Shown: piece by piece, positions 470-59,801 of the stretch
Layout of the letters: each line of letters opens with the position of its first letter
Position numbering within the stretch: position 1 is the first letter of the stretch
Virus record (IMG/VR): IMGVR_UViG_3300030098_002348
Source of the DNA: an uncultured virus (IMG/VR IMGVR_UViG_3300030098_002348)
Lineage: Duplodnaviria > Heunggongvirae > Uroviricota > Caudoviricetes
Strand: one strand, 5' to 3'
Length of the DNA: 64,000 nt
Program-made: the position numbers and the translations under genes
Notes under the pieces: model-generated
What the model was told of the DNA's origin: nothing
What the model saw: only the letters and a program-made list of their open reading frames with translations
Database searches by the model: none

Positions 470-478
470 TATGTCCTC

Positions 479-997: not shown

Positions 998-1034
998 TTT
1001 TTTACTCCTTAAAATATTTTATACCAATTTTATA

Positions 1035-2000: not shown

Positions 2001-2012
2001 AATTTAAACCTC

Positions 2013-2408: not shown

Positions 2409-2420
2409 AATTTACTCCTT

Positions 2421-3074: not shown

Positions 3075-3084
3075 AATTTATCCT

Positions 3085-4065: not shown

Positions 4066-4079
4066 AAGGATTTACCTCC

Positions 4080-4511: not shown

Positions 4512-4524
4512 AGTTGTTCTCCTT

Positions 4525-5277: not shown

Positions 5278-5280
5278 AAT

Positions 5281-6066
5281 TTATGCTCTTTGATTTACAG
5301 GTCCTGCAAATACAAAGAATCCTCCTCCTGTTTCTGTGCTTGATGCATTTGATACTAAACTAAAAGTAAATTTATTACTATAGCTCTGAGCTGTATTTGC
5401 ATCGTTTGTAGCTGTCTCAGAAACTTTTGTTATTATATACGATCCAAAAACTTTTGCACCTGAATTATGTGATGCCGCTGTCGTATTTGAATATGTTCTA
5501 CCGTACGCTGGTGCGGATGTACCTCGAGTGCAACCAGTTAGGTCATTACTAGATTTACCGGTATATTCTATTGTTTCATCTTCAATAACTATAAATCCGC
5601 TTGTTGGAAAAGCACCAGCATCAGCAAGGGTTATGGTTGTGGCTGTAGCTGAAATATTACCATTTAATGTTGTTTCTAATTGAAGAGTGTTGATTGCAAC
5701 TCCACCAACAGGTTCTTTAACTTCTCTAAATCTTATTGCATCACCCGTTGACCAAGGATTACTGTCCTGTAATACTTCATCTTCACCAGTAAAAACTGTT
5801 ACAACTTTAGATGCAGCTGTCATTACAAACGGATCATTTCTTAAAACATTAGGCGTAGGAAAAGCTGTTCTACTTGGTTTTGGATGTTTTAAAGCTTGTG
5901 GATCAGCGCTAGTAGGTCTTGGTTGTAATTGTGGTTGCTTTGGTTCAAACTCAGATATGTGCACCCAAGAACCATTCCACTCTTGAACCATCTCAGTATA
6001 CGGAAATCGTAAACCTGATCGGTCTGAAATCATGTATGCATATTTACCAGATGCAAAACTTCCCAT
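5281..6066 (-). CDS. Virion structural protein with inserted beta modules, copy 1
   Basis: 261 aa; ISDRSG.RFPY..M..EWNG..VH..E.EPKQPQL N-terminus; homologue at 62342..63172. Confidence 0.6.
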   Translation of the reverse strand: MGSFASGKYAYMISDRSGLRFPYTEMVQEWNGSWVHISEFEPKQPQLQPRPTSADPQALKHPKPSRTAFPTPNVLRNDPFVMTAASKVVTVFTGEDEVLQDSNPWSTGDAIRFREVKEPVGGVAINTLQLETTLNGNISATATTITLADAGAFPTSGFIVIEDETIEYTGKSSNDLTGCTRGTSAPAYGRTYSNTTAASHNSGAKVFGSYIITKVSETATNDANTAQSYSNKFTFSLVSNASSTETGGGFFVFAGPVNQRA

Positions 6067-7010
6067 TATCCCAACTCCGGATAGTAAACTTTTGGACTTA
6101 TAAATGTGCTGACCGGAGATCCATCTTCTGAAAGAGCTCTGGCAAATTCATCTTCATATAATAATTTTAGTTCTTGCACTCTTTGAGGGGCATATTTAAT
6201 AGCAAGATAGTATGCTAAACCTGAAGTCATGCAAGGTATAAATCTAAAAGGAACATCGGTTGCATTTGTATATGCACCTACATCTTGTATCCTTTGTGTG
6301 TAATAAAAATTTATGCAATATCCAGTTTGAGCTTGTTCACTTCCTGGTGTTAGATACAAAGTTATTGTAACCTTATCTATGAATCTTTGAACAAAATATT
6401 GATTTGGTGTTCCTTTATCTGTTTTATTTGAAAATGCTTGATACTGTGATCTACTAATTTTTGTCATGGGAGCATCGACATTTTGATCATTTCTATAATT
6501 AGATTCTAAAATATCATTGACGCCTGCAGGAAATTGTAAAACATTGTCTCCAGAGGTGTGAGTAGCAGCGGTTGTTCCGTTTACACCTCTGACACAACCA
6601 GTTAAATTTAAAGCAGATATACCTGAGTAAGTTATCTCTTCGTCATTTATTTTTACAATGCCTGAACTAGCAAGATTAGTTACAGATGCAACACCGATTG
6701 TTGTTACTGTAGCGTTGATTCCTGCAGATAAAGTGGTTGTAACTCCAGCGCTCGTGCCATCAGCCGTTGATCTAAAAAAGCTATATTCAGCTTGACCATC
6801 AACCATCTCAATACTTTGGTTTCTAACTTCCCAATAGTGTAAACCTCTATTACCCCACTCTGAAAAAAGAATATTTAAAGATCTTCTGGCTGTTTTTAAT
6901 TGATAGCCAGATACACCTTGCATACCTATTCTTTCATATGCCTCTTCAATAATCTCTTCGACTGGAAGAGTCTTTCCAAAAGTATAAGAACCCGAGGTGA
7001 TATTAGCCAC
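6066..7010 (-). CDS. Head-tail adaptor (tail tubular protein A-like), copy 1
   Basis: 314 aa; ARRSLNILFSEWGNRG and GLAYYLA.K..P.R...LK..YE.E motifs. Confidence 0.6.
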   Translation of the reverse strand: MANITSGSYTFGKTLPVEEIIEEAYERIGMQGVSGYQLKTARRSLNILFSEWGNRGLHYWEVRNQSIEMVDGQAEYSFFRSTADGTSAGVTTTLSAGINATVTTIGVASVTNLASSGIVKINDEEITYSGISALNLTGCVRGVNGTTAATHTSGDNVLQFPAGVNDILESNYRNDQNVDAPMTKISRSQYQAFSNKTDKGTPNQYFVQRFIDKVTITLYLTPGSEQAQTGYCINFYYTQRIQDVGAYTNATDVPFRFIPCMTSGLAYYLAIKYAPQRVQELKLLYEDEFARALSEDGSPVSTFISPKVYYPELG

Positions 7011-15721: not shown

Positions 15722-18235
15722 CTATCTTTTTGGACCTTTCAAGATCTCTACATCAGCCATTTTGAATAAATCGTTCTGAATTTTAGCTGTTTGAGACATT
15801 GCTTGCTTTGTTAATGATGTACTTGCTCGTAAATTTGCTAATTCTTCATTTTGTTCGAGCTTTTCATCAAACTGTTGTTGCCCCATTAGCTGTTTTGAAC
15901 GATCCAAATCAATTTTTTCTTGATCTTGTTCACGTTTCATACTTTCATTCAACGCTCTGAGGTCTAATTCTCTTGCTTTTAGTTGTGCAACTGGATCATT
16001 TCCGAATGCACCCATAATTTCTTGCTCTTCTTGTCTAAATTCTCTCATCATTTCAGCAATTAATTTTGATTTTCTTGATTCCATTTGAGTTGTAAGCGTT
16101 AAAATCTGTTGTTGCACTTGTGGATCTTGTTGCAGCTGTGGGTTTATTTGAATTGCTTGTTGTAATTGTGCAATTTGTTGTATCTCTTGTGCAAATTCTA
16201 ACTCTAGTTGCTCTTGTGCCATCAAAGAAATGTGTTCAAAAATATTTTTTTCTAACGATGCGGTGATAACCGGATTATTTTTTGCCATATTCATAGCCAT
16301 AAAATTTAAGTGGGCTGTAATGTGTGCTCTGTGGTCTTGACCTTTGAATGCTTGAAATGGTTTTCCTGTCATTGCCATGATGTTTTCTGCAGCAGGATCC
16401 ATTGGCATTGGTTGTTGTGGTGGCGGCAATACTTGATCTATATTTTTTACACCGATTGCTTCGTACATGTCTCTGTACGCTTCGTATAAATTATGTATTT
16501 GTGGATTAGACATTGCTAATTGTAACTCTGTTTGTGCTAAACTTATTCTTTGTGATTGTGAAAATATATTTGGATCAGCAACAGGTATAATATCTATCTT
16601 GTCATCAAAGTCTGTAAGTTTTACTGTTCGTTGAGCGCCCACGACATCGTAAGGATACTCTGCTGGTAAATAAGTTTTAAATACCCCAGCTAATAATTGA
16701 AACTCTTGTTTCATCGCCACATACATTCTTTTGTGTATGGCTGACATGACTCTTGAACCACGTTCTAACAGAGCTATGGTCGTACCAACAGCTGCCTGCT
16801 GGTTGCCGTCACCGACCTGCATGTCAGCTATGGCGGCAAATCGTTGTCCTGCCTGAACTACAATTCCCATCAATTGCAATAAAGTCTGTGATGGTTCTTT
16901 AAAAGGTAAAGGCATAAATGCATCTCTGATGTTTCCACCAGGTGCATCCACATCTCTAAACTCTCCAGGTTGGATTGAATTTGCTTCGTCTCTAACACGA
17001 ATACCTCGTTGTTTGAAACCTGCAGGCATGTTTGAAAAAGTGCCTGCATCTATTAGCTGTCTTAATGCGTTAGTCGCTGTTCTTGATAAGCCACCAATCA
17101 TGTGTATTAAACCAAAGCCATAAAAACCTAGACCAGGTAAAAATTTAAAATGAACAAAATATTCTATTTTATTTTTTAATGGATCGTTAGGTTGATAATT
17201 TCTTCGGATGGATAACACTTCTCTGCTACCTGCATCGAGTGTTACAATGTAAGGAAGTTTGATACCTGTCATGTCTCCAGCACTATCTTTGTCTTCAAAA
17301 CCTTCTAGATCTAAATTCATGTGAAACTCTAAAATAGTAAAGATATCATCATCCCTAGTTTTCTTGACACCCTCTAACTCTCTTTCTTTTTTTTCTACTT
17401 CTGATTCTTGAGAATAGCCGGGTGTAATTTCTATATCTCTATAAAAACCTGAAACTTGTTTTTTTCTTAAATCATTTTCTGACATTTTTAATTTGTGTAC
17501 AACTGCCTCTGCATCTTCAATAGATGTTGCAGTGTACGGAACTATCAAATCATCAGCTGGTACAAACTTTGAGACAGCTCTGCCTAAGAGCTCGTCATAA
17601 TAGACTTTCTTGAAGGCAGAGCCACTAAGAGGGAGATAAAAAAGCATTTGATCGAACTCGGGTTCATACTCTTTCATCACATTCATGAGCTGATAGTTCA
17701 TGAAGTTTTTTACTCTAACAGATTGATCTTCTTTCTGTCTGCTCGGTGCACCCATAGTTTGAGTGTGCACTGGTCCATTCGCTGGAAGTAATTCTTTGTA
17801 AGCCTGTGCTTGAAACTGTGTAACAGCTTCACCTAATACTGGGTGTGTTACACCACTTGCATTTTGAAACGGTTGTGTTCTATTTTCATATTTAAAACCA
17901 AGAAGATCTAAACCTTTTGTATAACTATCTTCCCAATCTTTTCTAGATGTTTTGTAGTTTTCATAATTCTCGTAAATTTCAGACCCTAATCTACCTAAAA
18001 GTTCTTCTGGTAAAAGATCTGCTAAATTATCAAAGTGTGTTGCAGTGCCCGGTTGATTGACAGCTTCTGGATCAAAATTAATTTCAACGGAACCATCTTC
18101 TTGCTCCTCAATTTTTACATCTTCAGGACCAACTTGTTCTTGAATTTTTTGTTCCGTAGCTACTTCTAATTCTTTTTCGCTAGGCGTTTTTATTGTTTGC
18201 TCTACGTTTGGAAGAGCTTTGTCTATTTCTGCCAT
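15722..18235 (-). CDS. Portal protein (P22-like, long Gln-rich barrel)
   Basis: 837 aa; SRKDWE, GSAFKKVYYD, PGLGFYGFGL, PGEFRDVD motifs; coiled-coil C-terminus. Confidence 0.85.
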   Translation of the reverse strand: MAEIDKALPNVEQTIKTPSEKELEVATEQKIQEQVGPEDVKIEEQEDGSVEINFDPEAVNQPGTATHFDNLADLLPEELLGRLGSEIYENYENYKTSRKDWEDSYTKGLDLLGFKYENRTQPFQNASGVTHPVLGEAVTQFQAQAYKELLPANGPVHTQTMGAPSRQKEDQSVRVKNFMNYQLMNVMKEYEPEFDQMLFYLPLSGSAFKKVYYDELLGRAVSKFVPADDLIVPYTATSIEDAEAVVHKLKMSENDLRKKQVSGFYRDIEITPGYSQESEVEKKERELEGVKKTRDDDIFTILEFHMNLDLEGFEDKDSAGDMTGIKLPYIVTLDAGSREVLSIRRNYQPNDPLKNKIEYFVHFKFLPGLGFYGFGLIHMIGGLSRTATNALRQLIDAGTFSNMPAGFKQRGIRVRDEANSIQPGEFRDVDAPGGNIRDAFMPLPFKEPSQTLLQLMGIVVQAGQRFAAIADMQVGDGNQQAAVGTTIALLERGSRVMSAIHKRMYVAMKQEFQLLAGVFKTYLPAEYPYDVVGAQRTVKLTDFDDKIDIIPVADPNIFSQSQRISLAQTELQLAMSNPQIHNLYEAYRDMYEAIGVKNIDQVLPPPQQPMPMDPAAENIMAMTGKPFQAFKGQDHRAHITAHLNFMAMNMAKNNPVITASLEKNIFEHISLMAQEQLELEFAQEIQQIAQLQQAIQINPQLQQDPQVQQQILTLTTQMESRKSKLIAEMMREFRQEEQEIMGAFGNDPVAQLKARELDLRALNESMKREQDQEKIDLDRSKQLMGQQQFDEKLEQNEELANLRASTSLTKQAMSQTAKIQNDLFKMADVEILKGPKR

Positions 18236-20417: not shown

Positions 20418-21899
20418 CTAATAATACTCCAACTGTCGTTTTATAATCGGCTCATCTTTTTCATCCTCTGGATGACGAATTAAACCGCCTTGTCGTATTC
20501 TCATCAACGCCTGTGTTGTGCTATCAACATAGTCATCATGGTCCCCATGTGGAAACGCTGCACATTCTTCGACCACTTCTTGCGCAAAGTGTTCATGCAT
20601 AGGAGCCCAAACTTTTCCGCTTTCAAAAAGCGGAGATATTGAGTTTACTCTCGCTTGTTTATCATTTCCACGGCTCGGTGTAAAGTTAATTACAGGTATC
20701 CCCATTCTTCTTAATTCTGATGTTAACGGTATCCCCGATGCCTTGGCCTCGATTAAAACTGAGTCAGGCCTCCAAAATAGATACTCTTCATGAGCCACCC
20801 TACGTAATTCAGGAAACTCGAACCTATCTTTGAAAGCATTTAATAATATAATATTATAGCCATTGTCTTCATCTTCAAAAACTCCCCATGTAGTTATCGC
20901 ACTAAAGTCGGCTGTTTCTCTTTTTAAAAATGCTGTATCGTAACTTTGGATAATATAATCTACACGAGGTGGATTTTTACCTTCCCAGTTTTGCCACCAC
21001 TCTCGTTTTATAATAGCTCCTTCTTCTGCTGTTGGCTGTTGCATATATTGTGCATTCCAGTTTGAAACAGGAATAGATGCTTTTGTTTTTTCTAATTCAT
21101 CTTGGGTCCAATACTCTGGCCACACAGGTTTACCACTTGGTAACAATGCTGGCAGTTCAACAACTTCCCATTGATCAGAGTCATTTTCTCCCTGAGCCCT
21201 GATTAATTGTCCAGTTAGATCTTTGGTATTCCACCGTGTCATGACGATAACGATTCGTCCGCCTGGTTGTAAACGTTGACGTGGACCTGATGTATACCAG
21301 TTCCATGCTTTCTCGAAAGACTTACTATCTTTTCTAATATCTTGTTCTTTGTGTGGATCATCGATGATTAGTAGATCAGCACCACGACCTGTTATTGCTC
21401 CACCAACACCGGCAGCGAAATATTCTCCTCCCTGTTCCGTTTTCCATTTACCAGCGGCTTGAGAGTCTTCTTGCAGTCTCGTATCAAACAGTTCCCGGTA
21501 TCGGGGCTCATCGACCAGGTTTTTTGTTTTACGTCCGAAGTCGACAGCTAGATCAGCCGTGTGAGTTGCTTGAATAATCTTTAATCGGGGATCACGGCCA
21601 ACCATCCATGCCGGAAGTAAGTATGAGGCAAACTCCGACTTTGTGTGTCTTGGCGGCATGTTGATGATTAGACGTTTTATTTTGCCAGAGGCAAGTTCGT
21701 TAAATTTTTTATTAATAATTTTGTGATGTGAACCTTCGATAAACTCAGGCCAAACATATTTCACAAAACTTAAAAAGTTGTTTTCTATTCTTGGTTTGGC
21801 TTTTGCTAGTTCCAGACTTCTTTCCAATTCCAAAAGTCTTTCACTTTCTTCTTTGGTCAATCCGTCAAAATTTTTTGAAAAATTTTTTTCATTAGACAT
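20418..21899 (-). CDS. terL: Terminase large subunit
   Basis: INMPPRHTKS (Walker A variant), LLIIDDP (Walker B), SYDTA and HDDYVDS nuclease motifs; likely start MSNEK at 21899. Confidence 0.92.
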   Translation of the reverse strand: MSNEKNFSKNFDGLTKEESERLLELERSLELAKAKPRIENNFLSFVKYVWPEFIEGSHHKIINKKFNELASGKIKRLIINMPPRHTKSEFASYLLPAWMVGRDPRLKIIQATHTADLAVDFGRKTKNLVDEPRYRELFDTRLQEDSQAAGKWKTEQGGEYFAAGVGGAITGRGADLLIIDDPHKEQDIRKDSKSFEKAWNWYTSGPRQRLQPGGRIVIVMTRWNTKDLTGQLIRAQGENDSDQWEVVELPALLPSGKPVWPEYWTQDELEKTKASIPVSNWNAQYMQQPTAEEGAIIKREWWQNWEGKNPPRVDYIIQSYDTAFLKRETADFSAITTWGVFEDEDNGYNIILLNAFKDRFEFPELRRVAHEEYLFWRPDSVLIEAKASGIPLTSELRRMGIPVINFTPSRGNDKQARVNSISPLFESGKVWAPMHEHFAQEVVEECAAFPHGDHDDYVDSTTQALMRIRQGGLIRHPEDEKDEPIIKRQLEYY

Positions 21900-22037
21900 A
21901 TGTAAATTTATTTTCAAAACCTTTACCATAACTATGTGAATTCGACAATATATACGCTGTCTGGGACCCCTTTGCGTAGAAAGGGGGGTCGATGTTTATA
22001 AATACAATAAAAACGTCGACCGGTCTGGTACCTCTAT

Positions 22038-22895: not shown

Positions 22896-22924
22896 ATATT
22901 ATATGATACCCCAGGCATTGTCAA
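22896..22924 (-). promoter_or_regulatory. Sigma70-like promoter (TTGACA...TATAAT)
   Basis: Minus strand TTGACAatgcctggggtatcaTATAATat; spacing 15 to TATAAT or 17 to TAATAT. Confidence 0.55.
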
Positions 22925-22927
22925 TAG

Positions 22928-23488
22928 TTAATTTAAATTATTTTCTATTGATTTTATGTTATTGTGCCATGTGAGCCCGATAACCTTAAAATGTTTATTC
23001 AGGTTCTCAATTAATTCACCTGGCAACCCGCTTTCCATGACGGTAGATATAGCGTCCTCTTTTAGCTGTCTAAGTCTGACAAGTTTTTTGCCGTCCTTAG
23101 TTTTTTCAGCTTCGCGTTCAGCGAGATCCTGGGCCCAGTTTCTTATTTGGTCCAGGCACCTTTCCGCGGTGATGTCTTTTATGTCATCACGGTCCATGGC
23201 TCTTGTAAAATGATAATCCAATTTAGATTTCATTTTATCCGTTGTAGCGGATCTATTAAAAAATGTGGCCAGCATTTTCTTTTTTTCAAAAATCTGATCC
23301 TCCATTTCTTGTAGCTCCTCAATGTCAGCTGAGATATCTAATTTATCAGCCAGCTTTTTTTCTGCGCTTGCTGTCATATCTGCAACTGTTTTTCTTAATG
23401 TCAAATTGGCTTCATCTATTAAAGGTTCAAATTTCTGTTGGACCTTTCTTTTAAAATGTTCCAATTGATACTTGGTCATTGCTTTCAT
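22928..23488 (-). CDS. Helical/coiled-coil hypothetical protein
   Basis: 186 aa; strong SD and promoter. Confidence 0.7.
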   Translation of the reverse strand: MKAMTKYQLEHFKRKVQQKFEPLIDEANLTLRKTVADMTASAEKKLADKLDISADIEELQEMEDQIFEKKKMLATFFNRSATTDKMKSKLDYHFTRAMDRDDIKDITAERCLDQIRNWAQDLAEREAEKTKDGKKLVRLRQLKEDAISTVMESGLPGELIENLNKHFKVIGLTWHNNIKSIENNLN

Positions 23489-23512
23489 AACTTATCCTTT
23501 CTGTTAATTATT

Positions 23513-23553
23513 TTTATAAACTACTTGACAAACATTGTCAATAGGATTATATG
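23513..23553. promoter_or_regulatory. Overlapping divergent sigma70 promoters
   Basis: Minus: TTGACA(23541-23536)-N17-TATAAA. Plus: TTGACA(23525)-N17-TATATG, pointing into the structured non-coding region. Confidence 0.7.
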
Positions 23554-23559
23554 GGATTA

Positions 23560-24057
23560 TAGGCTCCTGGGCATGAGCCTTAATAATAAAGGCCCACTGA
23601 TCCCGGGCTCTATGGGGCTGAGACGCAGGATTCCTGAGACGGCTCAATACTAGTGCGTCGCCGAATAACTGTAGGGCCCGGGATCAGTCCACAAACTCGC
23701 TGGAGACGAAACCAGCGGGGCTGATCCCTGGTCCGAACATCGCTAGCGCCTTAGTGCAAGGAATTACTGGAGCACTCGGACCTGGGATCAGATTTGGTCG
23801 AGACATACAATAGTATTAAATGTCTGGGTATGGTCCAGACATCAACCAAAACTGGTCAGGGAGTTCGTTTGTCCCTGGTGATGGCTGTAACCGAAGCGGC
23901 GACCAGCAGGAAGCGCGTAAGACCTGCATACCTGGAAGGTTAATAATAAAACTAGCAACAGCCGGATTAGCTGGCTCTGTTGAAAGAGAACAGAGAGAAG
24001 CCGCCTGCGGGCGGCCTTGCCAGCTGATCCTATTTTTTTTTTTTTTTTTTTTTTTTT
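23560..24057 (+). ncRNA. Candidate large structured non-coding RNA
   Basis: Series of nested long stems whose mismatches are mostly G-U compatible on the plus strand; upstream promoter; ends in 25 T; no credible ORF. Confidence 0.6.
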
Positions 24058-24088
24058 GGGTGGGCCCGCCCACAAGCAAGCCCCCCCC
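24058..24088. repeat. GC-rich near-palindrome GGGTGGGCCCGCCC...CAAGCCCCCC, copy B
   Basis: Matches 22038-22066. Confidence 0.85.
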
Positions 24089-24109
24089 AGTTTAGAATGA
24101 TTCTAAACT
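24089..24109. promoter_or_regulatory. Perfect palindrome containing an Irr iron control element (ICE)
   Basis: AGTTTAGAAT-G-ATTCTAAACT; core TTTAGAA-N3-TTCTAAA equals the alphaproteobacterial ICE consensus. Confidence 0.7.
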
Positions 24110-24116
24110 AACAGGC

Positions 24117-24145
24117 TTGACAAGTCCGCAAGCATGGGATATTAT
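24117..24145 (+). promoter_or_regulatory. Sigma70 promoter TTGACA-N17-TATTAT
   Basis: Upstream of the ATG at 24161. Confidence 0.75.
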
Positions 24146-24160
24146 GGGAGATAGAAAGTT

Positions 24161-24784
24161 ATGAATATATTGAAAGCAAAAGAAATTACAGGCAGCCTCT
24201 CAAAGCCTTCCAAGATGCCGGGGTGGTCTTATGGTTTACCGGCTAAGGAATGCAAAACCGGGAGCAAGCTCCGAAAGGTTGAGGGCTCAACCTGTTACAA
24301 TTGTTATGCATTAAAAGGCTGTTATGTTTTTAAAGTTGTGCAAGATGCGCAATACTACAGATTAAAAGCAATACGCCACCCGCACTGGGTCCCGGCCATG
24401 GTTATGCAAATAAATAATAAACGATCTAAAGAATTTAGGTGGCACGATTCCGGAGATGTACAAGATTTAAAACACTTATTAAAAATTTTTAAAGTTTGTA
24501 AGTTAACGCCAAAGATTCAACACTGGATGCCGACCCGGGAGGCGTGGGTTAAACCATTTATAAAAATAGCTCCTAAAAATTTATGTATTCGTTACAGCGT
24601 CCCGATGAACGACCAGCCACCGATTAAAAGCTGGCCCAATGTTTCAACAGTAATAACAAAAGACGCGCCCTGGTTCGGGGCCACTTCTCAAGTCTGTCCA
24701 GCTCCAAAGCAAGATAATAAATGTTTAGATTGCCGTGCTTGCTGGAACCGTGATATACATAACATTAGTTATTGGAATCACTAG
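24161..24784 (+). CDS. Cys-rich gp88-family protein (radical-SAM-like, probable Fe-S cluster)
   Basis: SKMPG.S..LPA..C, CYNCYA.KG.Y, FRWHDSGD, HW.PTRE and C-terminal CPA..Q...C.DCRACW motifs. Confidence 0.7.
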   Translation: MNILKAKEITGSLSKPSKMPGWSYGLPAKECKTGSKLRKVEGSTCYNCYALKGCYVFKVVQDAQYYRLKAIRHPHWVPAMVMQINNKRSKEFRWHDSGDVQDLKHLLKIFKVCKLTPKIQHWMPTREAWVKPFIKIAPKNLCIRYSVPMNDQPPIKSWPNVSTVITKDAPWFGATSQVCPAPKQDNKCLDCRACWNRDIHNISYWNH

Positions 24785-24841
24785 CATGTCTATGTATTAT
24801 TGGAGCCCCTCCAGGTTGAAAGATCTGAAAGAGAGAGGCTA

Positions 24842-25004
24842 CAAGCTCAGATTCATGAGCCTTGAAGAAGCGAACGCACAGGCAGAAGGCAACAAGCCTA
24901 CAAGCGCTCAAGCACAAGCTGACAAGCATCCCAGCCACAAGCCAAAGGGCTCAGGCGCAAGCCTTCCCTTACAAGATTAATTATTTCTGATCCAGGGTAC
25001 AAGC
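24842..25004 (+). repeat. Cluster of nine same-strand CAAGC pentamers
   Basis: At 24842, 24893, 24901, 24909, 24915, 24923, 24938, 24958 and 25000. Confidence 0.8.
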
Positions 25005-25550: not shown

Positions 25551-26030
25551 ATGTCTAAAGAAATTGTCAACAAAAAGGCAGCTCACCCACAGGAATTGAC
25601 AGAGATGCAGCGTAGATTTTGTGAGTATCTAATCATGAATGAGGGTAGGACCACACATCAAGATGCAGCAATAGCTGCTGGCTATGCCCCAAAGAATGCC
25701 AGATTTGAAGCGTACGGTCTTATGCAAAACCCAAAGATCCAAAGATACTTGGCTAAAAGAAGCAATGAAGTTAATAGATCTTTTGCAGTAACCAAACACA
25801 ACTACGTTAGAAGACAACAAATACTATCTCAAAAATTAGTAGAAGAAGGTAAGACAGAAAAAGCAGTAGGGTTTGAAAACCTGATAGGTAAAGCTACTGG
25901 GCAATTTGTAGATATACATCTACACGGCAAGATAAGTGACATGACTAACGAAGAGAAGTTAGAAGAAATTAAAAGAATTAAATCTATACAAAGCGAGAGA
26001 ATAAAAGCTCTTTCTAATTCTAAAGAGTAA
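25551..26030 (+). CDS. terS: Terminase small subunit
   Basis: LTEMQRRFCEYL......T...AAIAAGY....A...AY.LMQNPKIQRYL HTH pattern typical of TerS. Confidence 0.75.
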   Translation: MSKEIVNKKAAHPQELTEMQRRFCEYLIMNEGRTTHQDAAIAAGYAPKNARFEAYGLMQNPKIQRYLAKRSNEVNRSFAVTKHNYVRRQQILSQKLVEEGKTEKAVGFENLIGKATGQFVDIHLHGKISDMTNEEKLEEIKRIKSIQSERIKALSNSKE

Positions 26031-26605: not shown

Positions 26606-27316
26606 TTAATCATTTTTTGTATCTTGATCCTTTGGATCTTTGGTACAATTCTCATAATACTGGTCTATTTTCTTCAAGAATGCATGCATGTAGCCTTGAA
26701 ATTCTTTGTCCGCCACTTCAAATTTTTGAAAGAAGCAATCTTTAGAACACATTAAAATAACTCCAGACTGTATTTTGGTGCCGTATACATAGTTGTGGGC
26801 CATGGCGTAAGCTGCTAGCTGTATGAAATAATCATCAATCCACTCACGTTGTTTAGGCTTGTTAGTTTGCTTGAAGTCAATTATACTTTCGCGTCCGTTA
26901 TAAATTCCTACAACATCAGTCTGACCTGCGTACAACCCAGGGTAATGTATGGTGACCTCTGTGCCCCAGACCTCCTCTAGTTCCCCGAGCCCCGATCCAA
27001 TAATCACGTCTGCCATGCGCCCTGCTTCCTGGCCCAAGGCGGTGAGGTCTAGGTGTCGTTGATTTTTAATATACCCTTCAAGGTACGTGTGCATGGACGT
27101 TCCACGCATTGCTGATAAATCTCTGATTCGGTCGGCACGGTGCTGTCCAACCCTTGCCTGCCAGTTCGCTAAACTTTTACGCTTTTCTTCTGACTGTGTC
27201 TGTGATAGAATGGTGGTTACAGATGGTAACTTATCATTACCTATTTCGTAGTGTCTTCGACCCATGACTAAGCTCCTACTGCTCTTTGGGTAAACGAACC
27301 TCTGATTCCACTTCAT
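26606..27316 (-). CDS. PD-(D/E)XK exonuclease (RecB/MGME1-like)
   Basis: LPSVTTIL, RGT.MH..LE, YAGQTD, IIDFKQ and Y..QLAAYA motifs. Confidence 0.85.
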   Translation of the reverse strand: MKWNQRFVYPKSSRSLVMGRRHYEIGNDKLPSVTTILSQTQSEEKRKSLANWQARVGQHRADRIRDLSAMRGTSMHTYLEGYIKNQRHLDLTALGQEAGRMADVIIGSGLGELEEVWGTEVTIHYPGLYAGQTDVVGIYNGRESIIDFKQTNKPKQREWIDDYFIQLAAYAMAHNYVYGTKIQSGVILMCSKDCFFQKFEVADKEFQGYMHAFLKKIDQYYENCTKDPKDQDTKND

Positions 27317-27659: not shown

Positions 27660-28346
27660 TTATCCTGCTTCAACTTTGGCAGGTGCAATAATTTTTGCTT
27701 TTTCATTTTTTTCCACTTGATTTAATGGCACAGAGCTTGCCACGTTCCCTGATACAGATATCCTGGTCACATCAGAATAAAAAGGTGCAACGTAATGTTT
27801 TAACCACGACGGGAATATAAACATATCCCTGTTCTGAGGTATTATCGATTGATAGGTTATGGCTTGTCTATTACCCTCACCATATACAAAAGATAAACTA
27901 CCTGGACCACCGGATTGACCTTTAAATGTTTTTGCTTCTTCCTTAATTTCGCTAGGAACATCAAGAAATATTACAAAAGATAACTGGTCGGCATGGTCGT
28001 GTGGTGGATTATATTCATGTTTTTTCATGAAGTTTACCCATAGAGACGTTAATACGTAGTGTGGTTTAATTTTATATTTTTCATTTTTCCATTTCTGAAA
28101 TGCTTCATCGTACACACCCAGGATCTGTGCAATCTCCGGCACAAACATACCTTTGTCTTTGTATTCATATTCTTCTTTTAATATTCCTGCGAGCCTATCT
28201 GTGTAGTCTTGTTCCTTGACTCTAGATTTAAAAGCCTCATCTAAAAGTTTTTTATGAAACTCTTCTGATATTTTAATATGTACACAACATGGCCCCCAGG
28301 TAAATACCCCGTATTGAACCGTTGGTGAATTTATTTCGTTTGTCAT
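27660..28346 (-). CDS. 2OG-Fe(II) oxygenase superfamily protein
   Basis: WVN....EYNPPHDH, FIFPSWLKHYV.P and RISVSGN motifs. Confidence 0.85.
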   Translation of the reverse strand: MTNEINSPTVQYGVFTWGPCCVHIKISEEFHKKLLDEAFKSRVKEQDYTDRLAGILKEEYEYKDKGMFVPEIAQILGVYDEAFQKWKNEKYKIKPHYVLTSLWVNFMKKHEYNPPHDHADQLSFVIFLDVPSEIKEEAKTFKGQSGGPGSLSFVYGEGNRQAITYQSIIPQNRDMFIFPSWLKHYVAPFYSDVTRISVSGNVASSVPLNQVEKNEKAKIIAPAKVEAG

Positions 28347-28765
28347 TCTGCGTGCATTGCCTCCTTATATTCATTTAAATTAACCACTCTGCCATTAAAA
28401 ACTTTATTATCTTTTTTAGAATAGTGGTCTATAATTTTTTGTAATTTATCTATTTTAATGTGAGCGTATGGATACAAAGCCATGCATACAAAGTATGCCT
28501 CTCTGTGGCTGCATCTCCAACGCCATTGTTTTTTCCAACCCTGGGCTTTTTTAGTTCTGTATCTCTTTGGTGTTACTGTTCCAACACCCAGGACATCACA
28601 AACATTCTGTAGCGCAGGTTTGTCAGTCATAGATATTTCTAATCTAATCTGCCAAGTTGGATACGCTTTTTTGTTTCTATCTCTTTTTCTCATGTATTGC
28701 TTGTATGATACACACCCTTCACCATCAAAAAGCCCGGCAATATATGCTAATTCTGTATCTTTCAT
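28343..28765 (-). CDS. Free-standing single-motif LAGLIDADG endonuclease
   Basis: LAYIAGLFDGEGC at the N-terminus; 140 aa. Confidence 0.8.
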   Translation of the reverse strand: MKDTELAYIAGLFDGEGCVSYKQYMRKRDRNKKAYPTWQIRLEISMTDKPALQNVCDVLGVGTVTPKRYRTKKAQGWKKQWRWRCSHREAYFVCMALYPYAHIKIDKLQKIIDHYSKKDNKVFNGRVVNLNEYKEAMHAE

Positions 28766-33427: not shown

Positions 33428-35299
33428 TTAACCATTTATTTCTCCCCAGTTATTTCCAAACTCATAATCTACTTTATTTGGAACCTCTAGTGTAACAGCC
33501 TGCTCCATAATCTCAATAATTTTTTTAGCCTGTGCGTCATCTTCTATGGATAGATCTAACTCGTCGTGTATTTGTATATGTGGTACAATACCCTCTTTAT
33601 ATAATTCTAACATTGCTTTTTTAGTCATGTCCGCAGCGCTTCCTTGAATTAACTTGTTTAGTGCTTTGTATGTGTAGGCTCTCCTGATCCCCGGTCCATG
33701 TTCCCTGAGTGCTTCCTCATGAGGTAATGCCTTATGCATCCCGAACTGGTTCGGTTCCCAAAGATGAAACCTACACAACCTACCTAGCAACGTTCTTATT
33801 TGCCCCCGATCCTGTGCTCTATTCGACGCTTTTTCCATAAGCTGTTTAACAAATGGTACACGTGAATGATAAGTATTAAATAAATCTGCAGCCTTATCTT
33901 TTGTTACACCTAGCTCAGCCTGAAGTTTAGCCTTACCCATACCATAAAATAATCCAAGGTTAATTGTTTTAGCCTGGGACCTGGGTATCTGAGCCATGTC
34001 TGCTACAGTCTGGTGAAAGTCTGCGCTTGAGTCATTGCTATAAGACTCAACAACATCATATACTGATGGTAATTTATACAGAGATGCATAGTGAACAACT
34101 AATCTAGGTTCTTGTTGTGAATAGTCAAACACACCCCACTTACAGTCTTTTTCTGGAATAAACAACGATCTAATTTTAGGACCAAGATCTTTGTTACGTG
34201 CAGGTATCTGTTGTAGATTTGGATTTTGATAACTAAATCTACCAGTGACTGTGCCACCACCTGCGTTTCTTAGTTGGTTTATCTCTGCATGTATCCTACC
34301 TTCATGTTCATATCGTATGATAGAATCTATAAAAGTTGTATGTGCTTTATTTATTTCTCTTGCCTGCGCTATCATTTTAACAACGGGATGATTATGTTCT
34401 TGTAAAAAATTTTTAGTAAAACTTGGCGCTGCTGTTTTTTCTGTGCGTGGATATTCTAATCTTAATATGTCAAATACATTTGCAATAGATCTTGCTGCCC
34501 AGATCTGTGTATCAATATTAGTTTCACCTTTTATTTTATGTAGTAACTCTTTTTCTTGTGAGATTAATTCTTTTTTCATTGCATGTGCTTTTTCTATATC
34601 TACACGTACACCTTTGAATCTCATGTCAACCAGGCAGTGAAATAGGTCAGACTCTAGATCAAATATATCCTCCAGGTCTTGGCTCATAATTTCTTTTTTC
34701 ATTTCTTGCCAAAGCCCTAGTGTAACTTCAGCATCACGTTCTGCATATGCACCAACGTGCATTGCAGGTAGTTTGTACATTTCTGATTTTGGATCTATGC
34801 CCCATTCTTCTGCAGCCTCTGCAAGTGCAGCTTCGTTTTTACCATAACCAAGATAGTGCCATGATAAACTATTGAGATCATATCTAAATCTGTTCTCATC
34901 AGTCAACGCTGCAGCTATCATCGTGCATGCAATGTCGCCGTTAATTTTAAACCCCATTGCTCGCAACCAACAAACGTCATAGATCGCATTGTGAAAAATT
35001 TTTGTTGATGATGTTTCGAGTATATCTTTTAACCAAGATAGAACTCTGGTCCTATCCATGTTACCACCACCTTCATGTGCTATTGGAAAATATCCTTTAA
35101 AATGTTTTGTTGCAACAGCAATACCTATGACTTCACCATTACCAATAACAGAACCAGACCCCTTTTTTAATAAGTCAGGATCTTTTGTTTCTAGGTCAAT
35201 TGCTATTTCATCTACATGACGTAAGTCAGGAAACTCTGTGGGTTTTACCCACTCCGTTTGCGCTTCAAACTTAGGAATTTTCACTATAATCCCTCTCAA
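33428..35299 (-). CDS. polA: DNA polymerase family A (3'-5' exonuclease plus polymerase)
   Basis: IAIDLET, FHNAIYD, TGRFS..NPNLQQIP, DYSQQEPR, AKTINLGLFYGMG, QIHDEL. Confidence 0.95.
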   Translation of the reverse strand: MRGIIVKIPKFEAQTEWVKPTEFPDLRHVDEIAIDLETKDPDLLKKGSGSVIGNGEVIGIAVATKHFKGYFPIAHEGGGNMDRTRVLSWLKDILETSSTKIFHNAIYDVCWLRAMGFKINGDIACTMIAAALTDENRFRYDLNSLSWHYLGYGKNEAALAEAAEEWGIDPKSEMYKLPAMHVGAYAERDAEVTLGLWQEMKKEIMSQDLEDIFDLESDLFHCLVDMRFKGVRVDIEKAHAMKKELISQEKELLHKIKGETNIDTQIWAARSIANVFDILRLEYPRTEKTAAPSFTKNFLQEHNHPVVKMIAQAREINKAHTTFIDSIIRYEHEGRIHAEINQLRNAGGGTVTGRFSYQNPNLQQIPARNKDLGPKIRSLFIPEKDCKWGVFDYSQQEPRLVVHYASLYKLPSVYDVVESYSNDSSADFHQTVADMAQIPRSQAKTINLGLFYGMGKAKLQAELGVTKDKAADLFNTYHSRVPFVKQLMEKASNRAQDRGQIRTLLGRLCRFHLWEPNQFGMHKALPHEEALREHGPGIRRAYTYKALNKLIQGSAADMTKKAMLELYKEGIVPHIQIHDELDLSIEDDAQAKKIIEIMEQAVTLEVPNKVDYEFGNNWGEING

Positions 35300-35492
35300 T
35301 AATCATCTCTAAGAAATGTATGGCCTTCAATATATCTTCCTTTCCGTTCTTATCTTGATGACGGATTATGTATTTTATAGCACAACCTTCAGGATATAGC
35401 AATTTATTCTCTACTACAAACTTGCTTGGCTGTATTTTATATTTTTTATAATGAGATCCTCCGTGTTGTTTATCCCAAACTTTCGATGTCAT
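35271..35492 (-). CDS. DUF3310-like protein
   Basis: Q.GGSHY....IQP..F...N....EG..IKY..R...KNG.ED..KA.H.LE. Confidence 0.8.
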   Translation of the reverse strand: MTSKVWDKQHGGSHYKKYKIQPSKFVVENKLLYPEGCAIKYIIRHQDKNGKEDILKAIHFLEMIIERDYSENS

Positions 35493-36963
35493 ATCCCCTG
35501 TCCTCCTTTTTTGCGGCTAGTATATAAAGATTTTGTTTTGTTCTAGTCACACCCACATACCAAACTCTATTTTCTTCATCTGACTTGTCATCATTTTTTT
35601 CTGCTGATTCTCTGATTGTTTTTGTGTTGTCTAAAATTAATAATACATTTTCTGCCTCTCCACCTTTCGCAGAATGTATAGTGGATAATTTAACTCTAGC
35701 ATCTTTTGATAATTCTTCTCCGTTTCTTAACATTTCACGTATGTATAAATTTTCTTCAGGATTAGATTTAAATACTTCATACCATTCTTGATGTGTAAAA
35801 TACCCAAACTCGTAAAGATCGTACATTCTTTCTTCTGATATTTCTGTATCTTCCTGTAAAAATTCAAACAAATCTCTGCACTCTGAGAGAGATAATTTAT
35901 CTCCGTTTGTCCACCTGGTGTAATTTTTAATAGATGTGTACAATCTTTTTCCATAGCTTTTACGTCCTTTGTATTCGTAGTAAATAGCCATATCTTTTAA
36001 TATTGGCATAAGTTTGTTCAGTCTATCGTTATACCTGGCTAACACTAACCATTGTCCGGTGTGTAACGGAACATCTTCAATAGAAGTTATGTGGTGAACG
36101 GATCCCATGTCTGGTCTAGGTGACCATTGTTTTTTTATTCTCCTTTCGTCTGGTATACGATTTAAAATTTGATCAGCTATATGTTGCACCATGCTTGGCA
36201 CTCGATAAGATTGTGGCAAAATAATGTCTTTCTTTGCTGTAATATTTTGAAACATTTTAACATCTGCACCCGCCCAACCATAAATTGCTTGGTCATCGTC
36301 GCCTGCTAAAATTACGTACTTACTATTTTTTATTATTTCTTTACACATCTTCCATTGTATCGGAGATAAATCTTGAGCCTCGTCTATAAAAGCTATGTCT
36401 AATTTTGGACACATTTCTGACACAATAAATTTTTCAATCATGTCAGTAAAATCTACCAGTTTAAACGAGTCTTTATAATTAATAACTTCTGTTTGAAGTA
36501 TAGATAACAATCGTTTATCCAGTGTTTCTGAATACATGCCTGTATTATATTCATCTTCAACGGATATTTCTTTTATCCTCGCTGCATTTATTAAATTAAA
36601 ATATTCACTATCAGAATCTACAAACCCAGTTTTTTCTTGACCCTCAGAGTAGACCGTAACTTCAATACCTAATTTTCTACCTATGTCTTCATAGTGCTCA
36701 TCCTGCATGACCTCAGATTTTTTTAATCCTAATCTTGTAAACGCTAGAGAGTGTAGAGTTCTAAAATGTTTTAAGTCTTTTCTATTGTATCTTGGATATT
36801 GTTCTAACATTCTATCAATCGCTTCCTCTGCAGCTTTTTTAGTAAAAGCAAAGTACCCTATCTTATCTATGGGCGTGCCTAATTTTAAAAATGTCTTCAC
36901 ATATTTTAAAAGTTTGGTTGTCTTGCCAGTGCCTGGGGGTCCAAATAATTTTCTACTAATCAC
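35470..36963 (-). CDS. Superfamily 1 (UvrD/Rep-like) helicase
   Basis: GPPGTGKT, DEAQD, GDDDQAIY, STIHSAKGGE, YVGVTR. Confidence 0.93.
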   Translation of the reverse strand: MISRKLFGPPGTGKTTKLLKYVKTFLKLGTPIDKIGYFAFTKKAAEEAIDRMLEQYPRYNRKDLKHFRTLHSLAFTRLGLKKSEVMQDEHYEDIGRKLGIEVTVYSEGQEKTGFVDSDSEYFNLINAARIKEISVEDEYNTGMYSETLDKRLLSILQTEVINYKDSFKLVDFTDMIEKFIVSEMCPKLDIAFIDEAQDLSPIQWKMCKEIIKNSKYVILAGDDDQAIYGWAGADVKMFQNITAKKDIILPQSYRVPSMVQHIADQILNRIPDERRIKKQWSPRPDMGSVHHITSIEDVPLHTGQWLVLARYNDRLNKLMPILKDMAIYYEYKGRKSYGKRLYTSIKNYTRWTNGDKLSLSECRDLFEFLQEDTEISEERMYDLYEFGYFTHQEWYEVFKSNPEENLYIREMLRNGEELSKDARVKLSTIHSAKGGEAENVLLILDNTKTIRESAEKNDDKSDEENRVWYVGVTRTKQNLYILAAKKEDRGYDIESLG

Positions 36964-38594
36964 ATTATCTCCGTTTTATGTTTCAATGGTTTATGATTGA
37001 TTGGTATCTCCTCAAAAGATTTTAAATTAATTTGCACCACATTTTTTACAGATGCATTATATTTTCCTTTTTCTTTTGTAGGAAATCTTTTTTGTTCTAA
37101 AAACTCTATCTCACATTCTCTATAGGCTAACTCCATGATACGACCTGTTTTTTCTTCTTTATATTTCCAATCTTTTGCTTTCAATCTTTCAAAAAATTTA
37201 TCAAATTTAAAAAATGCATAGTCACCTTCAATTAACACTGACCCAGTTTTAAAGGCAGCATCGTTAGTCGCTTTTGGTCCATTTATTTTTGCATGTAGAA
37301 CATCGTGTAGTTTTTCTTTTGGTGAAGTTCCTATTGGTGGTTGCACTGTTTTCTGTGTAGAGTAAAGAGCGTCCATTACTGTTTGTTCTTGATCTCCTTT
37401 TATTAGAGGTGGTAAAAAACCTGCAGCCTTTGCTATGGCATTTCTACGCTTACGTTGATCGTTTAAATGTTCTATTGATTTACAGTGCACTGTTGCTGTT
37501 CCGATACCATCAGGTTTAGTCACATCAAACTCATACTCAGGTTCTTCAAATATTTCTATCTTTCTTAAATTGGTTAATACAGGATACGCTCCTTTAGATC
37601 CTGCCAACACTCCAAATTTTTTCTTAACACAAATACCTTTTTTACAAAAATCACTTATCGGACTTTCATTACAGGTGTATCCTTTTTCTGATCTCTTCCA
37701 AGATTTTAATTTAGCGCTTAATTTTTTATCGTCCCATGCATTAGCATGTGATTCTTCAAAAAATTTTACTGGTGCATTTTTAACCTTGCGTTCCCAATCG
37801 TCGGGGTACTTCATCTTCACAAACACATGATAATTATACATAAATCGATCTTTGCCATCGAAACCTTTTTGGTTAGAAATCTTGGAAATGTCTGCAAGAC
37901 AAGGTGGACCATCAATTAAATCTTCATCTACGCCTCTGTATATTTTTAAATCTATTTCGTTAGTAATAATTTCTAGATCTTTTTTAGATACTAGATTTGA
38001 CTCAACTACTTTTAAAAATTGATCTAACTCAAACTTAGTCCCATCTAAGTTCATGGCTTTTCTTTTATCACCGTAGTAAGGTAAATTAATAAATTGACCT
38101 GGTTTTAAATTACCTGTCTCCTCGTCTCTAGTTAATTCTGTTTGCTTTGGAAATATTTCAGTGTCTTGTTTTAATTTAAATAAGGGTAATAAATTAGTTA
38201 AAAAAGATTTTACAATTTTAGCATTCGTAAATGCATCCATGAAAATACATAAATGCAAACCACCGCTTTTAGATTCTATTGGTATGAGAGGAAGATCGTA
38301 TTGTTGTATTGTATCTATAAAAAATTTTTTATCAAAATCATCATATTCTTTTGGATCAATGTCTATGACTCCAAACTTAACTTCTTTGTTTTCATTACAT
38401 GGTTGAATACCAATTGACACCTTGCCTTGCAAGTGAGAGCTATAGACAGATTCTGTTAACTTCTCAAAGTTCCAACGATAGACTGGTTTTTTCTTGCCGC
38501 TGTCAGGATCAACAAAAGCCTCGGGATGATCAAAGTCAGCTAATCCATATGCCGATCTATATCCATCAAAAAATTTTATATATCTAGTATCCAT
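36960..38594 (-). CDS. Archaeo-eukaryotic-type primase (AEP) domain protein
   Basis: FGVIDID, ESKSGGLH and FINLPY motifs, GPPCL, Cys cluster; likely start MDTRY at 38594. Confidence 0.75.
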   Translation of the reverse strand: MDTRYIKFFDGYRSAYGLADFDHPEAFVDPDSGKKKPVYRWNFEKLTESVYSSHLQGKVSIGIQPCNENKEVKFGVIDIDPKEYDDFDKKFFIDTIQQYDLPLIPIESKSGGLHLCIFMDAFTNAKIVKSFLTNLLPLFKLKQDTEIFPKQTELTRDEETGNLKPGQFINLPYYGDKRKAMNLDGTKFELDQFLKVVESNLVSKKDLEIITNEIDLKIYRGVDEDLIDGPPCLADISKISNQKGFDGKDRFMYNYHVFVKMKYPDDWERKVKNAPVKFFEESHANAWDDKKLSAKLKSWKRSEKGYTCNESPISDFCKKGICVKKKFGVLAGSKGAYPVLTNLRKIEIFEEPEYEFDVTKPDGIGTATVHCKSIEHLNDQRKRRNAIAKAAGFLPPLIKGDQEQTVMDALYSTQKTVQPPIGTSPKEKLHDVLHAKINGPKATNDAAFKTGSVLIEGDYAFFKFDKFFERLKAKDWKYKEEKTGRIMELAYRECEIEFLEQKRFPTKEKGKYNASVKNVVQINLKSFEEIPINHKPLKHKTEIM

Positions 38595-38604
38595 AACTGA
38601 GTTA

Positions 38605-38637
38605 CGTGGGCCTTCCACTCTCGCTTCCCGGCCCACG
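38605..38637. terminator. Intergenic stem-loop
   Basis: CGTGGGCC...GGCCCACG between the SSB-like and primase genes. Confidence 0.5.
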
Positions 38638-38657
38638 CTGCGCATACCCCGTAGGGA

Positions 38658-57249: not shown

Positions 57250-57258
57250 TGTGTCCTC

Positions 57259-57750: not shown

Positions 57751-57769
57751 ATTTATACTCCTTTTATCT

Positions 57770-58725: not shown

Positions 58726-58737
58726 AATTTAAACCTC

Positions 58738-59127: not shown

Positions 59128-59139
59128 AATTGTCTCCTT

Positions 59140-59793: not shown

Positions 59794-59801
59794 AATTTCT
59801 C

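Follow-up and report, generated by a model that had tools for sequence, protein, structure and literature searches.

RNase III sites in the early mRNA of phage T7 are intergenic hairpins of about two helical turns that contain an internal mismatch or loop, have related lower stems and are repeated along the operon. Integron attC sites are imperfect hairpins of about 57-141 nucleotides (nt) with R-box arms RYYYAAC and GTTRRRY, while the PeSLs of T4-type phages and the BOX, REP and Correia elements are short conserved intergenic stem-loop repeats that promote modular shuffling. The prohead RNA (pRNA) of phage phi29 is a phage-encoded structured RNA located near packaging genes. GOLLD and ROOL are large structured non-coding RNAs that are often carried by phages, as described in PMC5737381 and bioRxiv 10.1101/2024.12.08.627333. 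The locus described here has features of several of these systems and occupies positions 23556-24057 (plus strand) of a 64,000-nt stretch (the window) of IMG/VR record IMGVR_UViG_3300030098_002348, an uncultured member of the Caudoviricetes. We favor the possibility, at a probability of roughly 0.6, that this region is a non-coding transcription unit composed of independently folding RNA modules that runs from a promoter to a long U-tract. Two of the modules, Units 1 and 2, belong to a large and apparently undescribed hairpin family in which a conserved basal stem, the clamp, carries a hypervariable apical domain.

Like the T7 RNase III sites, the clamp is a stem of about 20 bp broken by one mismatch; unlike them, the hairpins follow one another in tandem at the start of a transcription unit and bear large, hypervariable, structured apices. 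GOLLD and ROOL have single conserved architectures of 500-800 nt and are in Rfam, whereas the window locus is a mosaic of small exchangeable modules with no Rfam match. In contrast to PeSLs, BOX, REP and Correia elements, the hairpins keep to one locus and one orientation, their clamps show G.U-biased covariation and their apical modules are structured and conserved. A CRISPR array or solitary-repeat anti-CRISPR RNA was rejected, as the conserved elements are the inverted arms of one hairpin, with extensions that covary; no direct-repeat family (minimum length 40) was found in the region. We regard the locus as a phage structured non-coding RNA with an unusual, cassette-like organization of clamps and hypervariable modules that is apparently undescribed. 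No description of such an array was found in the literature searches made, and the words intergenic, non-coding and hairpin are absent from a pelagiphage paper (PMC9599517). The 2023 IMG/VR catalogue of 8,495 candidate structured RNAs (PMC10690425) may include some of the modules, as may the catalogue PMC5737381.

The clamp hairpin family and its folded strand

The region came to attention through a prediction, made from the sequence alone, of a non-coding, highly structured plus-strand RNA 3' of a sigma-70-type promoter, and this description holds. The plus strand reaches a minimum free energy of -204.6 kcal/mol, where 100 dinucleotide shuffles give -161.6 +/- 6.1 (z -7.10; no shuffle as good), which bears out the claim of strong folding by the z-score check proposed with it. 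As the minus strand has a similar z-score (-193.9 kcal/mol, z -7.11), energy cannot pick the strand. All of the predicted helices are present at the places given for them, including a 20-bp stem (23596-23615 with 23669-23688) whose three non-Watson-Crick pairs, read by hand, are all G.U on the plus strand, and a 16-bp stem (23721-23736 with 23776-23791) whose single mismatch is U.U; exactly 25 T follow at 24033-24057. Open reading frames (ORFs) across the structured region are 40-91 aa long, several run through the T or A run and none is convincing.

The prediction had not recognized the region as a tRNA, tmRNA or known ribozyme, and the searches agree. Rfam 15 gave no match at gathering score anywhere in the window (pRNA, GOLLD, ROOL, IMES, 6S, Y RNA and ribozymes included), a permissive scan of 23300-24300 with E up to 10 gave nine chance-level matches (10-21 bits, against gathering scores of 41-100), and ARAGORN found no tRNA or tmRNA gene in the window. 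A blastn search of 23490-24160 against 50,697 phage records returned no match.

The clamp has a consensus stem of 18-19 bp, CUGAUCCC-U-G(G/A)UCC.../...GGA(C/U)C-U-GGGAUCAG (as DNA, CTGATCCC-T-G(G/A)TCC...GGA(C/T)C-T-GGGATCAG), in which 8 bp are usually followed by a U.U mismatch at position 9 and then by 9-10 bp, with the hypervariable apical domain on top. An extra A-U pair is present at the base in 102 of 201 units. Units were collected from 66 viral-contig loci anchored on GP88, the gene that follows the array in the window, and from a pattern scan of viral contigs (at least 121 stretches); clamp positions 1-10 (1-13 in the motif-anchored set) were fixed by the search patterns. Together, 187 loci (cited below by L numbers) and the window yielded 186 distinct units, which are 46-144 nt long (median 69 nt). 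A closing helix shared by domains with unrelated interiors, pointed out for two domains in the original prediction, is the key feature of the family and extends to all 186 units.

Evidence that the clamp is maintained as a structure comes from its upper part. In the 186-unit set, positions 11-16 pair in 88-98% of units with several pair types, and positions 14-16, which are 88-97% paired, show four or five pair types each. Positions 17-18 are Watson-Crick in 67-69% of units, nearly all of the remainder being G.U, and past position 19 pairing is at background level. In an alignment of 47 units from GP88-anchored loci, compared with 500 shuffles, 97.1% of cells pair (83.5% in shuffles), compensatory changes occur in 9 of 17 pairs (6.2 in shuffles) and in 112 cells (33.5 in shuffles), and the covariation score of 0.384 (0.119 in shuffles) was equalled by none of the shuffles. 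When the 3' partner was shifted by one to three columns, pairing fell to 16-50%. The stem covaries, then, above the level of shuffles in the collected units, a test in homologues that had been proposed with the prediction. Non-Watson-Crick combinations at positions 14, 17 and 18 are G.U in 23, 52 and 32 cases against 0, 2 and 3 for A.C, and this asymmetry identifies the folded strand as the one that bears the U.U mismatch, that is, the plus strand of the window. The promoter and GP88 are on this same strand. It is, in our view, highly probable that a single-strand structure on the plus strand is under selection.

Conserved terminal inverted repeats with variable interiors, in variable copy number and dispensable to the phage, would also be expected of selfish palindromic repeats (of the BOX, Correia or miniature inverted-repeat transposable element type) that have piled up without function in a tolerant intergenic region. 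We consider this explanation very unlikely given how the family is distributed. A covariance model (R1) built from the collected units has only two matches in the window, both at this locus: Unit 2 at 23721-23791 (50.9 bits on the plus strand, 40.3 on the minus strand) and Unit 1 at 23597-23687 (36.2 and 23.8 bits). As identical copies from L001 were in the seed, these two matches are by construction; it is the absence of further ones that is informative. Among 80 motif-anchored loci with flanks, GP88 lies downstream and co-oriented in 67, one locus is rearranged (L133, where the array precedes terL) and 12 have no GP88 in the flank, such that a single orientation relative to promoter and GP88 is kept in 67 of the 68 loci that hold the gene. 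None of the 186 interiors is found reverse-complemented in another unit (two are self-palindromes), and the G.U-biased covariation of the stem demonstrates that the fold is under selection. The clamp pattern matched three times in 185,579 prokaryote species genomes, always on small contigs of metagenome-assembled or single-cell genomes, which indicates that the element is phage-borne. A dispersed palindrome and an invertible shufflon were rejected on the same observations.

Within phages, arrays hold one to four co-oriented units, and unit number across relatives ranges from 0 to 4. One to three canonical hairpins lie upstream of GP88 in 36 of the 66 GP88 loci, and canonical units are present in 31 of the 48 loci for which upstream DNA exceeds 1.5 kb. 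Similarity to the window region over its full length is limited to two near-identical contigs among the 66 GP88 loci; the others share pieces. In the cultured phage HTVC027P, the 550-nt gap between gp35 and gp34 contains the same promoter together with two units, one canonical and one variant. Phage 023Pt_psg01 carries a single unit, located after two small ORFs, and HTVC033P has none.

Modules of the window locus and their turnover

The original prediction left open whether the region was one large RNA or an array of hairpin units; an array describes it better than a single monolithic RNA. Besides the two clamp hairpins, the locus has five small structured domains of other kinds, M0, M2, M4, M5 and M6, which also turn up in other arrays. 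The 5'-terminal hairpin M0 (23561-23580, plus strand, as are all modules) has the form AGGCTC-CTGGGCAT-GAGCCT; its counterpart in L003 is GGGTC...GACCC, a compensatory change, and the hairpin is kept in L027. It runs into the first copy (23580-23590) of an 11-nt direct repeat, TTAATAATAAA, whose second copy (23940-23950) lies in the less structured tail of M5, so that the two copies bracket M1-M5. L003 has a single copy with its M6 homologue directly after, which suggests insertion or deletion of a block. Unit 1 (23597-23687) carries a branched apical domain of 60 nt and is a variant in that a G-C pair replaces the U.U mismatch. It is followed by M2 (23688-23720), which consists of ACAAAC and the hairpin CGCTGG-AGACGAAA-CCAGCG (23698-23717) and has an alternative closing helix, GGGATCAGTCC/GGGGCTGATCCC (23680-23728). 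M2 has homologues in six other loci, and a canonical unit in L073 has it as its interior, with the covarying stem TGCAAG/CTTGCA.

Unit 2 (23721-23791) has the canonical clamp, CTGATCCC-T-GGTCCGA...TCGGACC-T-GGGATCAG, with the U.U mismatch. M4 (23794-23851), in which TTTGGT...ACCAAA encloses ATGTCTGG/CCAGACAT, has homologues in L139, L007 and L185. M5 (23853-23964), in which CTGGTC...GACCAG (23853-23906) encloses CAGGGA/TCCCTG, is present only in the near-identical L001 and L002. M6 (23965-24030) is a three-way junction closed by GGATTAGCTGGC/GCCAGCTGATCC that encloses CTCTGTT/AACAGAG and GCCGCC/GGCGGC; homologues are found in L003, at another array position, and in L027, and the closing helix covaries (CTGGC/GCCAG against TTGGC/GCCAA). 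A general alternative register, in which GGGATCAG...CTGATCCC would close the linkers, was rejected: three or more extension pairs occur in 14 of 63 cases (about 4.5 expected) and none in 30 of 63, and the register is real for M2 and M6 only. A recurrence of CTGATCC at 22564, also remarked on in the prediction, is probably chance, there being 12 plus-strand copies in the 64 kb.

Comparison between loci shows how these parts turn over. GP88 of L003 is 99% identical and the promoter and flanks are the same, yet different modules lie between. Clustering the 186 units by interior gave 162 clusters. The apical domain of Unit 2 occurs in 15 metagenome contigs with at least six flank contexts and, beside the canonical clamp, three other clamp forms: 11 clamps are canonical, one is a GTGATCCTTGG variant, one is a CTTGAGCCC-T-GGTC variant (also in L006), and in two contigs (identical in this stretch) the domain sits on an unrelated clamp, ATTATTAGAGG/CCTCTAATAAT. 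In all of these contexts the flanks part exactly at the clamp ends. Modules are exchanged between phages as discrete units whose boundaries are the clamp ends.

The apical domains also behave as structures. Of the 186 units, 148 fold as single irregular hairpins, 35 with two apical hairpins and three with three. Related interiors show compensatory changes in their inner helices (AAGCUU..AAGCUU against AAGGUU..AACCUU; CCCUGCAGGG against CCUUGCAAGG), which indicates that the apical domains are structured entities and not loops. Palindromic hexamers with a CUAG or UCGA core (GCUAGC, UCUAGA, CUCGAG, ACUAGU) are 7-10 times more frequent in apical domains than in shuffles, and the Unit 2 alleles CGCUAGCG and GGCUAGCC (23743-23750 in the window) differ by a double change that keeps an 8-nt palindrome. 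From such patterns, some modules may self-associate through loop-loop contacts of palindromic loops. A sponge for proteins of the CsrA/RsmA type was rejected, as GGA motifs are not enriched in apical domains.

Organization of this kind raises the possibility of a cassette system that operates at the DNA level, where the units would be attC-like recombination sites that form in a single DNA strand and permit short non-coding cassettes to be inserted and excised 3' of a fixed promoter; any transcription would then be incidental or serve only to express the cargo. The likeness to attC is considerable: co-oriented variable arrays lie directly 3' of a conserved promoter, copy number varies between 0 and 4, near-identical phages differ in content, and units of 46-144 nt are imperfect inverted repeats with a central mismatch, a variable terminal structure and boundaries exactly at the repeat ends. 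One strand is the functional one in both systems, and a G.T over A.C strand bias is equally expected of a folded DNA strand. We nevertheless think such a system unlikely. There is no tyrosine recombinase or integrase domain among the 66 of 85 window ORFs covered by a Pfam scan (the other 19 are mostly small overlapping frames or belong to a diverged duplicate cluster at 57259-63912). The arms are CTGATCC/GGATCAG in all collected units, unlike the attC R-box consensus; the units have no ORF cargos; and the compensatory changes and recurrence of the apical modules point to selection on a folded product and not on a mere recombination site. Homologous recombination over identical arms of 14-18 nt would give the same boundaries without a dedicated enzyme, since the arms themselves supply the homology; the phage does encode a PD-(D/E)XK exonuclease (26606-27316, minus strand), which can be cited with this reading.

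Our preferred reading, an array of RNA modules, brings the Rfam motif Flavobacterium-1 (RF02976) into the comparison. This motif is found in the HTVC027P locus (L188, 4477-4597, plus strand; 90.2 bits against a gathering score of 58.9), 3' of a canonical clamp hairpin and of the same promoter type, a position that makes it one module of the same kind of array. It is an orphan structured small RNA (sRNA) motif with a fixed 121-nt structure and not a clamp hairpin with a variable apex; its 121-position model has no match in the window, even at E up to 10 over 23300-24300. One of the three clamp matches in prokaryote genomes is on a small scaffold of a Flavobacterium single-cell genome, which suggests that the name of the motif reflects phage DNA in such assemblies. 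We found nothing in the literature on Flavobacterium-1 related to the motif described here.

Two further modules were observed in the collected loci. A module of about 104 nt, UGUUGUA-RCUGYGGG...CUAUAGUNCAGGUCGCGAU...CCGCCUGCRCAGGACAACA, whose inner helices visibly covary, is present in at least nine loci (L007, L014, L017 at 2645-2750, L040, L059, L084, L123, L130 and L181). Five of these (L007, L014, L040, L059 and L123) were among 20 loci scanned with Rfam, and in none of the five did the module reach a gathering score; it is a second candidate for a new RNA motif. L003 (about 2770-2830) and L192, the locus of 023Pt_psg01 (2290-2345), share a pseudoknot-like module, CGAUUUGUGAG(G/C)GUGUACGG..CUAUAAAGAGUGAC(C/G)CC, and the paired differences between its copies are consistent with a hairpin plus pseudoknot.

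Transcription and possible roles of the array

The promoter P1 (23525-23553, plus strand), as read from the sequence, consists of TTGACA, a 17-nt spacer and TATATG. It was not called by a consensus promoter scanner, because the -10 hexamer has G and not T at position 6; homologous loci have TATATA or TATATT there. The -35 hexamer lies inside the palindrome TTGACAA-ACA-TTGTCAA, which looks like an operator. In 59 of 97 distinct loci, an element of the form TTGACA..TGTCAA..TATAT(A/T) precedes the first unit by 72-350 nt on the same strand; a reverse-strand control of this count is uninformative because the element is palindromic. At the other end, the T25 run (24033-24057) directly after the closing helix of M6 is a probable terminator U-tract; it was not called by a terminator scanner, because the preceding helix encloses a branched domain. 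The T run is 16 long in L001, 28 in L002 and 11 in L003 and L004, and the differences among near-identical contigs may reflect slippage or assembly uncertainty.

Six of the 23 public runs listed for the window stretch are RNA libraries, and the marine RNA-library runs compared (four of four, from two studies) all have contigs on 23570-24021. The coding flanks (22900-23500 and 24106-24900) have next to no RNA-library contigs, which is no proof of a discrete transcript because the contigs are assembled and the runs were chosen with this stretch. Two joints in these contigs, one that skips 23666-23784 with 17 other letters inserted and one in which 23858 is joined to 23965 such that the M5 stretch 23859-23964 is absent, show that module-swapped variants exist. 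Contig ends at 23778 and 23963 are not taken as RNA ends, as they coincide with points where strain variants diverge. For HTVC027P, passages of PMC12753301 place gp33 and gp34, which lie 3' of the array, in a separate early-to-middle expression class; non-coding transcripts are not discussed in the paper, nor do the words intergenic, non-coding or sRNA appear in it. We consider it quite probable that the locus acts as an RNA made from P1.

Two other sequence patterns are associated with transcription signals in related phages. Hexamer arrays, (NCAAGC)n with 5-10 repeats, stand directly 5' of the TTGACA promoters inside the rightward operon of many such phages (L188 at 4590-4640 and 4900-4960; L024, L030, L031 and L008 upstream of GP88; weakly at 24073-24082 in the window) and may be UP-element-like or bind a regulator. 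Palindromes of the form TGCGACA-N4-TGTCGCA are repeated in intergenic regions of relatives (L006 at 2080-2170; L035 at 2095-2200 and 2950-2975) and look like operators.

If the array is transcribed, its units could be cis-acting elements of the mRNA, that is, RNase III-type processing or stabilizer sites of the rightward operon with apical domains as filler and no RNA that acts in trans. A stem of about 19-20 bp with one mismatch would suit such sites, units also occur between or after ORFs of the operon (after two ORFs in L192, after an ORF in L027 and right at ORF ends in L195 and L196), and the distinct temporal class of gp33 and gp34 downstream of the HTVC027P array (PMC12753301) would fit as well. 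In the window, however, the T25 run parts the array from GP88, which has a promoter of its own (P2, 24117-24145, plus strand: TTGACA, a 17-nt spacer and TATTAT, called by the promoter scanner with 11 of 12 consensus matches). Furthermore, processing needs no tandem arrays of two to four units, the apical modules are conserved across contexts and covary internally, and the same type of locus holds a free-standing sRNA motif, Flavobacterium-1. We therefore regard a purely cis-acting role as improbable, to about the same degree as a DNA-level cassette system.

The interpretation that we favor, a transcription unit of RNA modules, has to be set against the following: (i) G.T wobble stabilizes hairpins of single-stranded DNA too, such that the G.U asymmetry proves single-strand folding and not RNA as such; (ii) the RNA-library data are assembled contigs, which give presence without strand, ends or level, and DNA can occur in RNA libraries; (iii) the invariance of the clamp at its fixed positions is by construction, because the search patterns set them; (iv) of the 48 relatives whose upstream DNA extends beyond 1.5 kb, 17 lack canonical units, which indicates that units are dispensable; (v) no universal motif is present in the apical domains of the 186 units; (vi) complementarity to the phage's own genome is not beyond that of shuffles (elsewhere in the window the longest match, in either sense, has 12 nt, where 30 shuffles gave 11-14 nt), a result on which an antisense regulator of its own genes was rejected; and (vii) no RNA-binding or RNA-processing domain is found among the Pfam-scanned ORFs.

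A plausible scenario is that P1, a host-type (sigma-70) promoter, would drive transcription of the plus-strand array up to the U-tract and that the clamp would serve as a sequence-specific recognition or processing site, most likely one bound by a protein, of the RNase III type or another, through which each module is insulated, excised or stabilized. The clamp is kept across phages whose GP88 proteins are 50-67% identical and its mismatch is flanked by G-C pairs, which suggests base-specific recognition; its geometry would suit a substrate of RNase III type. We offer a role of the clamp in processing or protein binding as a tentative proposal. Whether freed or still clamped, the modules would then work in trans as decoys, aptamers or scaffolds for host or phage factors, with turnover resembling that of an arms race, and the identical clamp arms would probably double as microhomology for recombinational shuffling. 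A more speculative and, as a whole, rather doubtful extension is an RNA cassette array carried by the leading phages of SAR11, the most abundant marine bacterium, as a fast-turnover, promoter-proximal library of modules on a common clamp that would be both a handle for a protein or RNase and the homology for swapping.

Genome context and significance

The window is a tailed-phage genome, as judged by Pfam domains of its ORFs. Its nearest cultured relatives are the Pelagibacter phages HTVC027P (66% identity for terL and 51% for GP88) and HTVC023P, and the phage is an HTVC023P-type pelagiphage of the marine SAR11 type. On the minus strand are the portal gene (15722-18235), terL (20418-21929), DNA polymerase A (33428-35299), a UvrD-type helicase (35470-36963) and an AEP primase (36960-38645). 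The structured region is flanked on the left by a divergent, leftward ORF of 186 aa without a family (22928-23488), homologues of which are upstream and divergent in 11 of 121 motif-anchored loci, and on the right by the rightward GP88-family gene (24161-24784; PF17338, E 8e-27), the usual downstream neighbor of the arrays. terS follows at 25551-26030 (plus strand). The Pfam scan of 66 of the 85 ORFs found no phage RNA polymerase, integrase or RNA-processing domain.

The structured region thus lies between terL and terS, as had been noted in the prediction, which also raised the possibility of a role in packaging. Such a role, as a pac site, an origin of replication or a phi29-like prohead RNA, could draw on this location, on the equal folding energy of both strands and on the many GATC sites and the long T run. 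It is, all the same, the least probable explanation that we considered, and the packaging suggestion finds no support in comparison with relatives: L008 keeps the promoter, operon and gene order without units, canonical units are missing from 17 of 48 loci, and the array precedes terL in place of GP88 in L133 and sits elsewhere in L195 and L196. A conserved packaging RNA would not vary from 0 to 4 copies with hypervariable interiors. The other roles raised in the prediction, a decoy or a regulator, may still apply. Unlike phi29 pRNA, moreover, the locus belongs to a phage with a terS/terL terminase and matches neither pRNA nor any other Rfam family.

GP88 was rejected as an RNA partner, because homologues are also present in unit-less phages (HTVC033P; roseophages and others). 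Thirteen homologues of the protein have an invariant C31-x13-C45-x2-C48 within CYNCYALKG, plus FRWHDSGD, and the C-terminus has a cysteine cluster (C179, C188, C191 and C194). An AlphaFold2 model (pLDDT 73) has weak beta/alpha-barrel matches only, several radical-SAM enzymes mixed with GH18 barrels among them (Z 5.1-5.7 with the radical-SAM enzyme QueE). GP88 is possibly a radical-SAM-like Fe-S enzyme.

Elsewhere in the window, a gene cluster with an SU10-adaptor-like gene and genes for glycine-rich proteins is present in two diverged copies (1-6100 and 57250-63200), which are 76-89% identical and lie 56.7-57.1 kb apart. Related phages have genomes of about 57-60 kb, a length near this spacing, which suggests that the window may exceed one genome length; the pair may reflect a concatemer longer than one genome or a mixed-strain assembly rather than a true duplication. 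A free-standing homing endonuclease gene of the LAGLIDADG/HNH type (28343-28765) adjoins a 2OG-Fe(II) oxygenase gene; at the corresponding position, HTVC027P encodes an HNH homing endonuclease.

HTVC023P-type pelagiphages are among the most abundant viruses of the sea and, to our knowledge, their non-coding content has no prior description. The locus provides a new, well-delimited RNA motif that covaries strongly and has natural variants by the hundred, and it gives the orphan Rfam motif Flavobacterium-1 a genomic home. As HTVC027P is cultured on HTCC1062 and RNA-seq of its infection has been published, transcription, processing and binding partners are directly testable. The locus is also a natural case of clamp-insulated, modular RNA domains that are shuffled in the wild. 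If the idea of an RNA cassette array is correct, such loci would be an RNA-level counterpart of integron and CRISPR arrays, with hypervariable decoys or aptamers directed against SAR11 factors, and the homology of the clamps would let co-infecting phages exchange modules.

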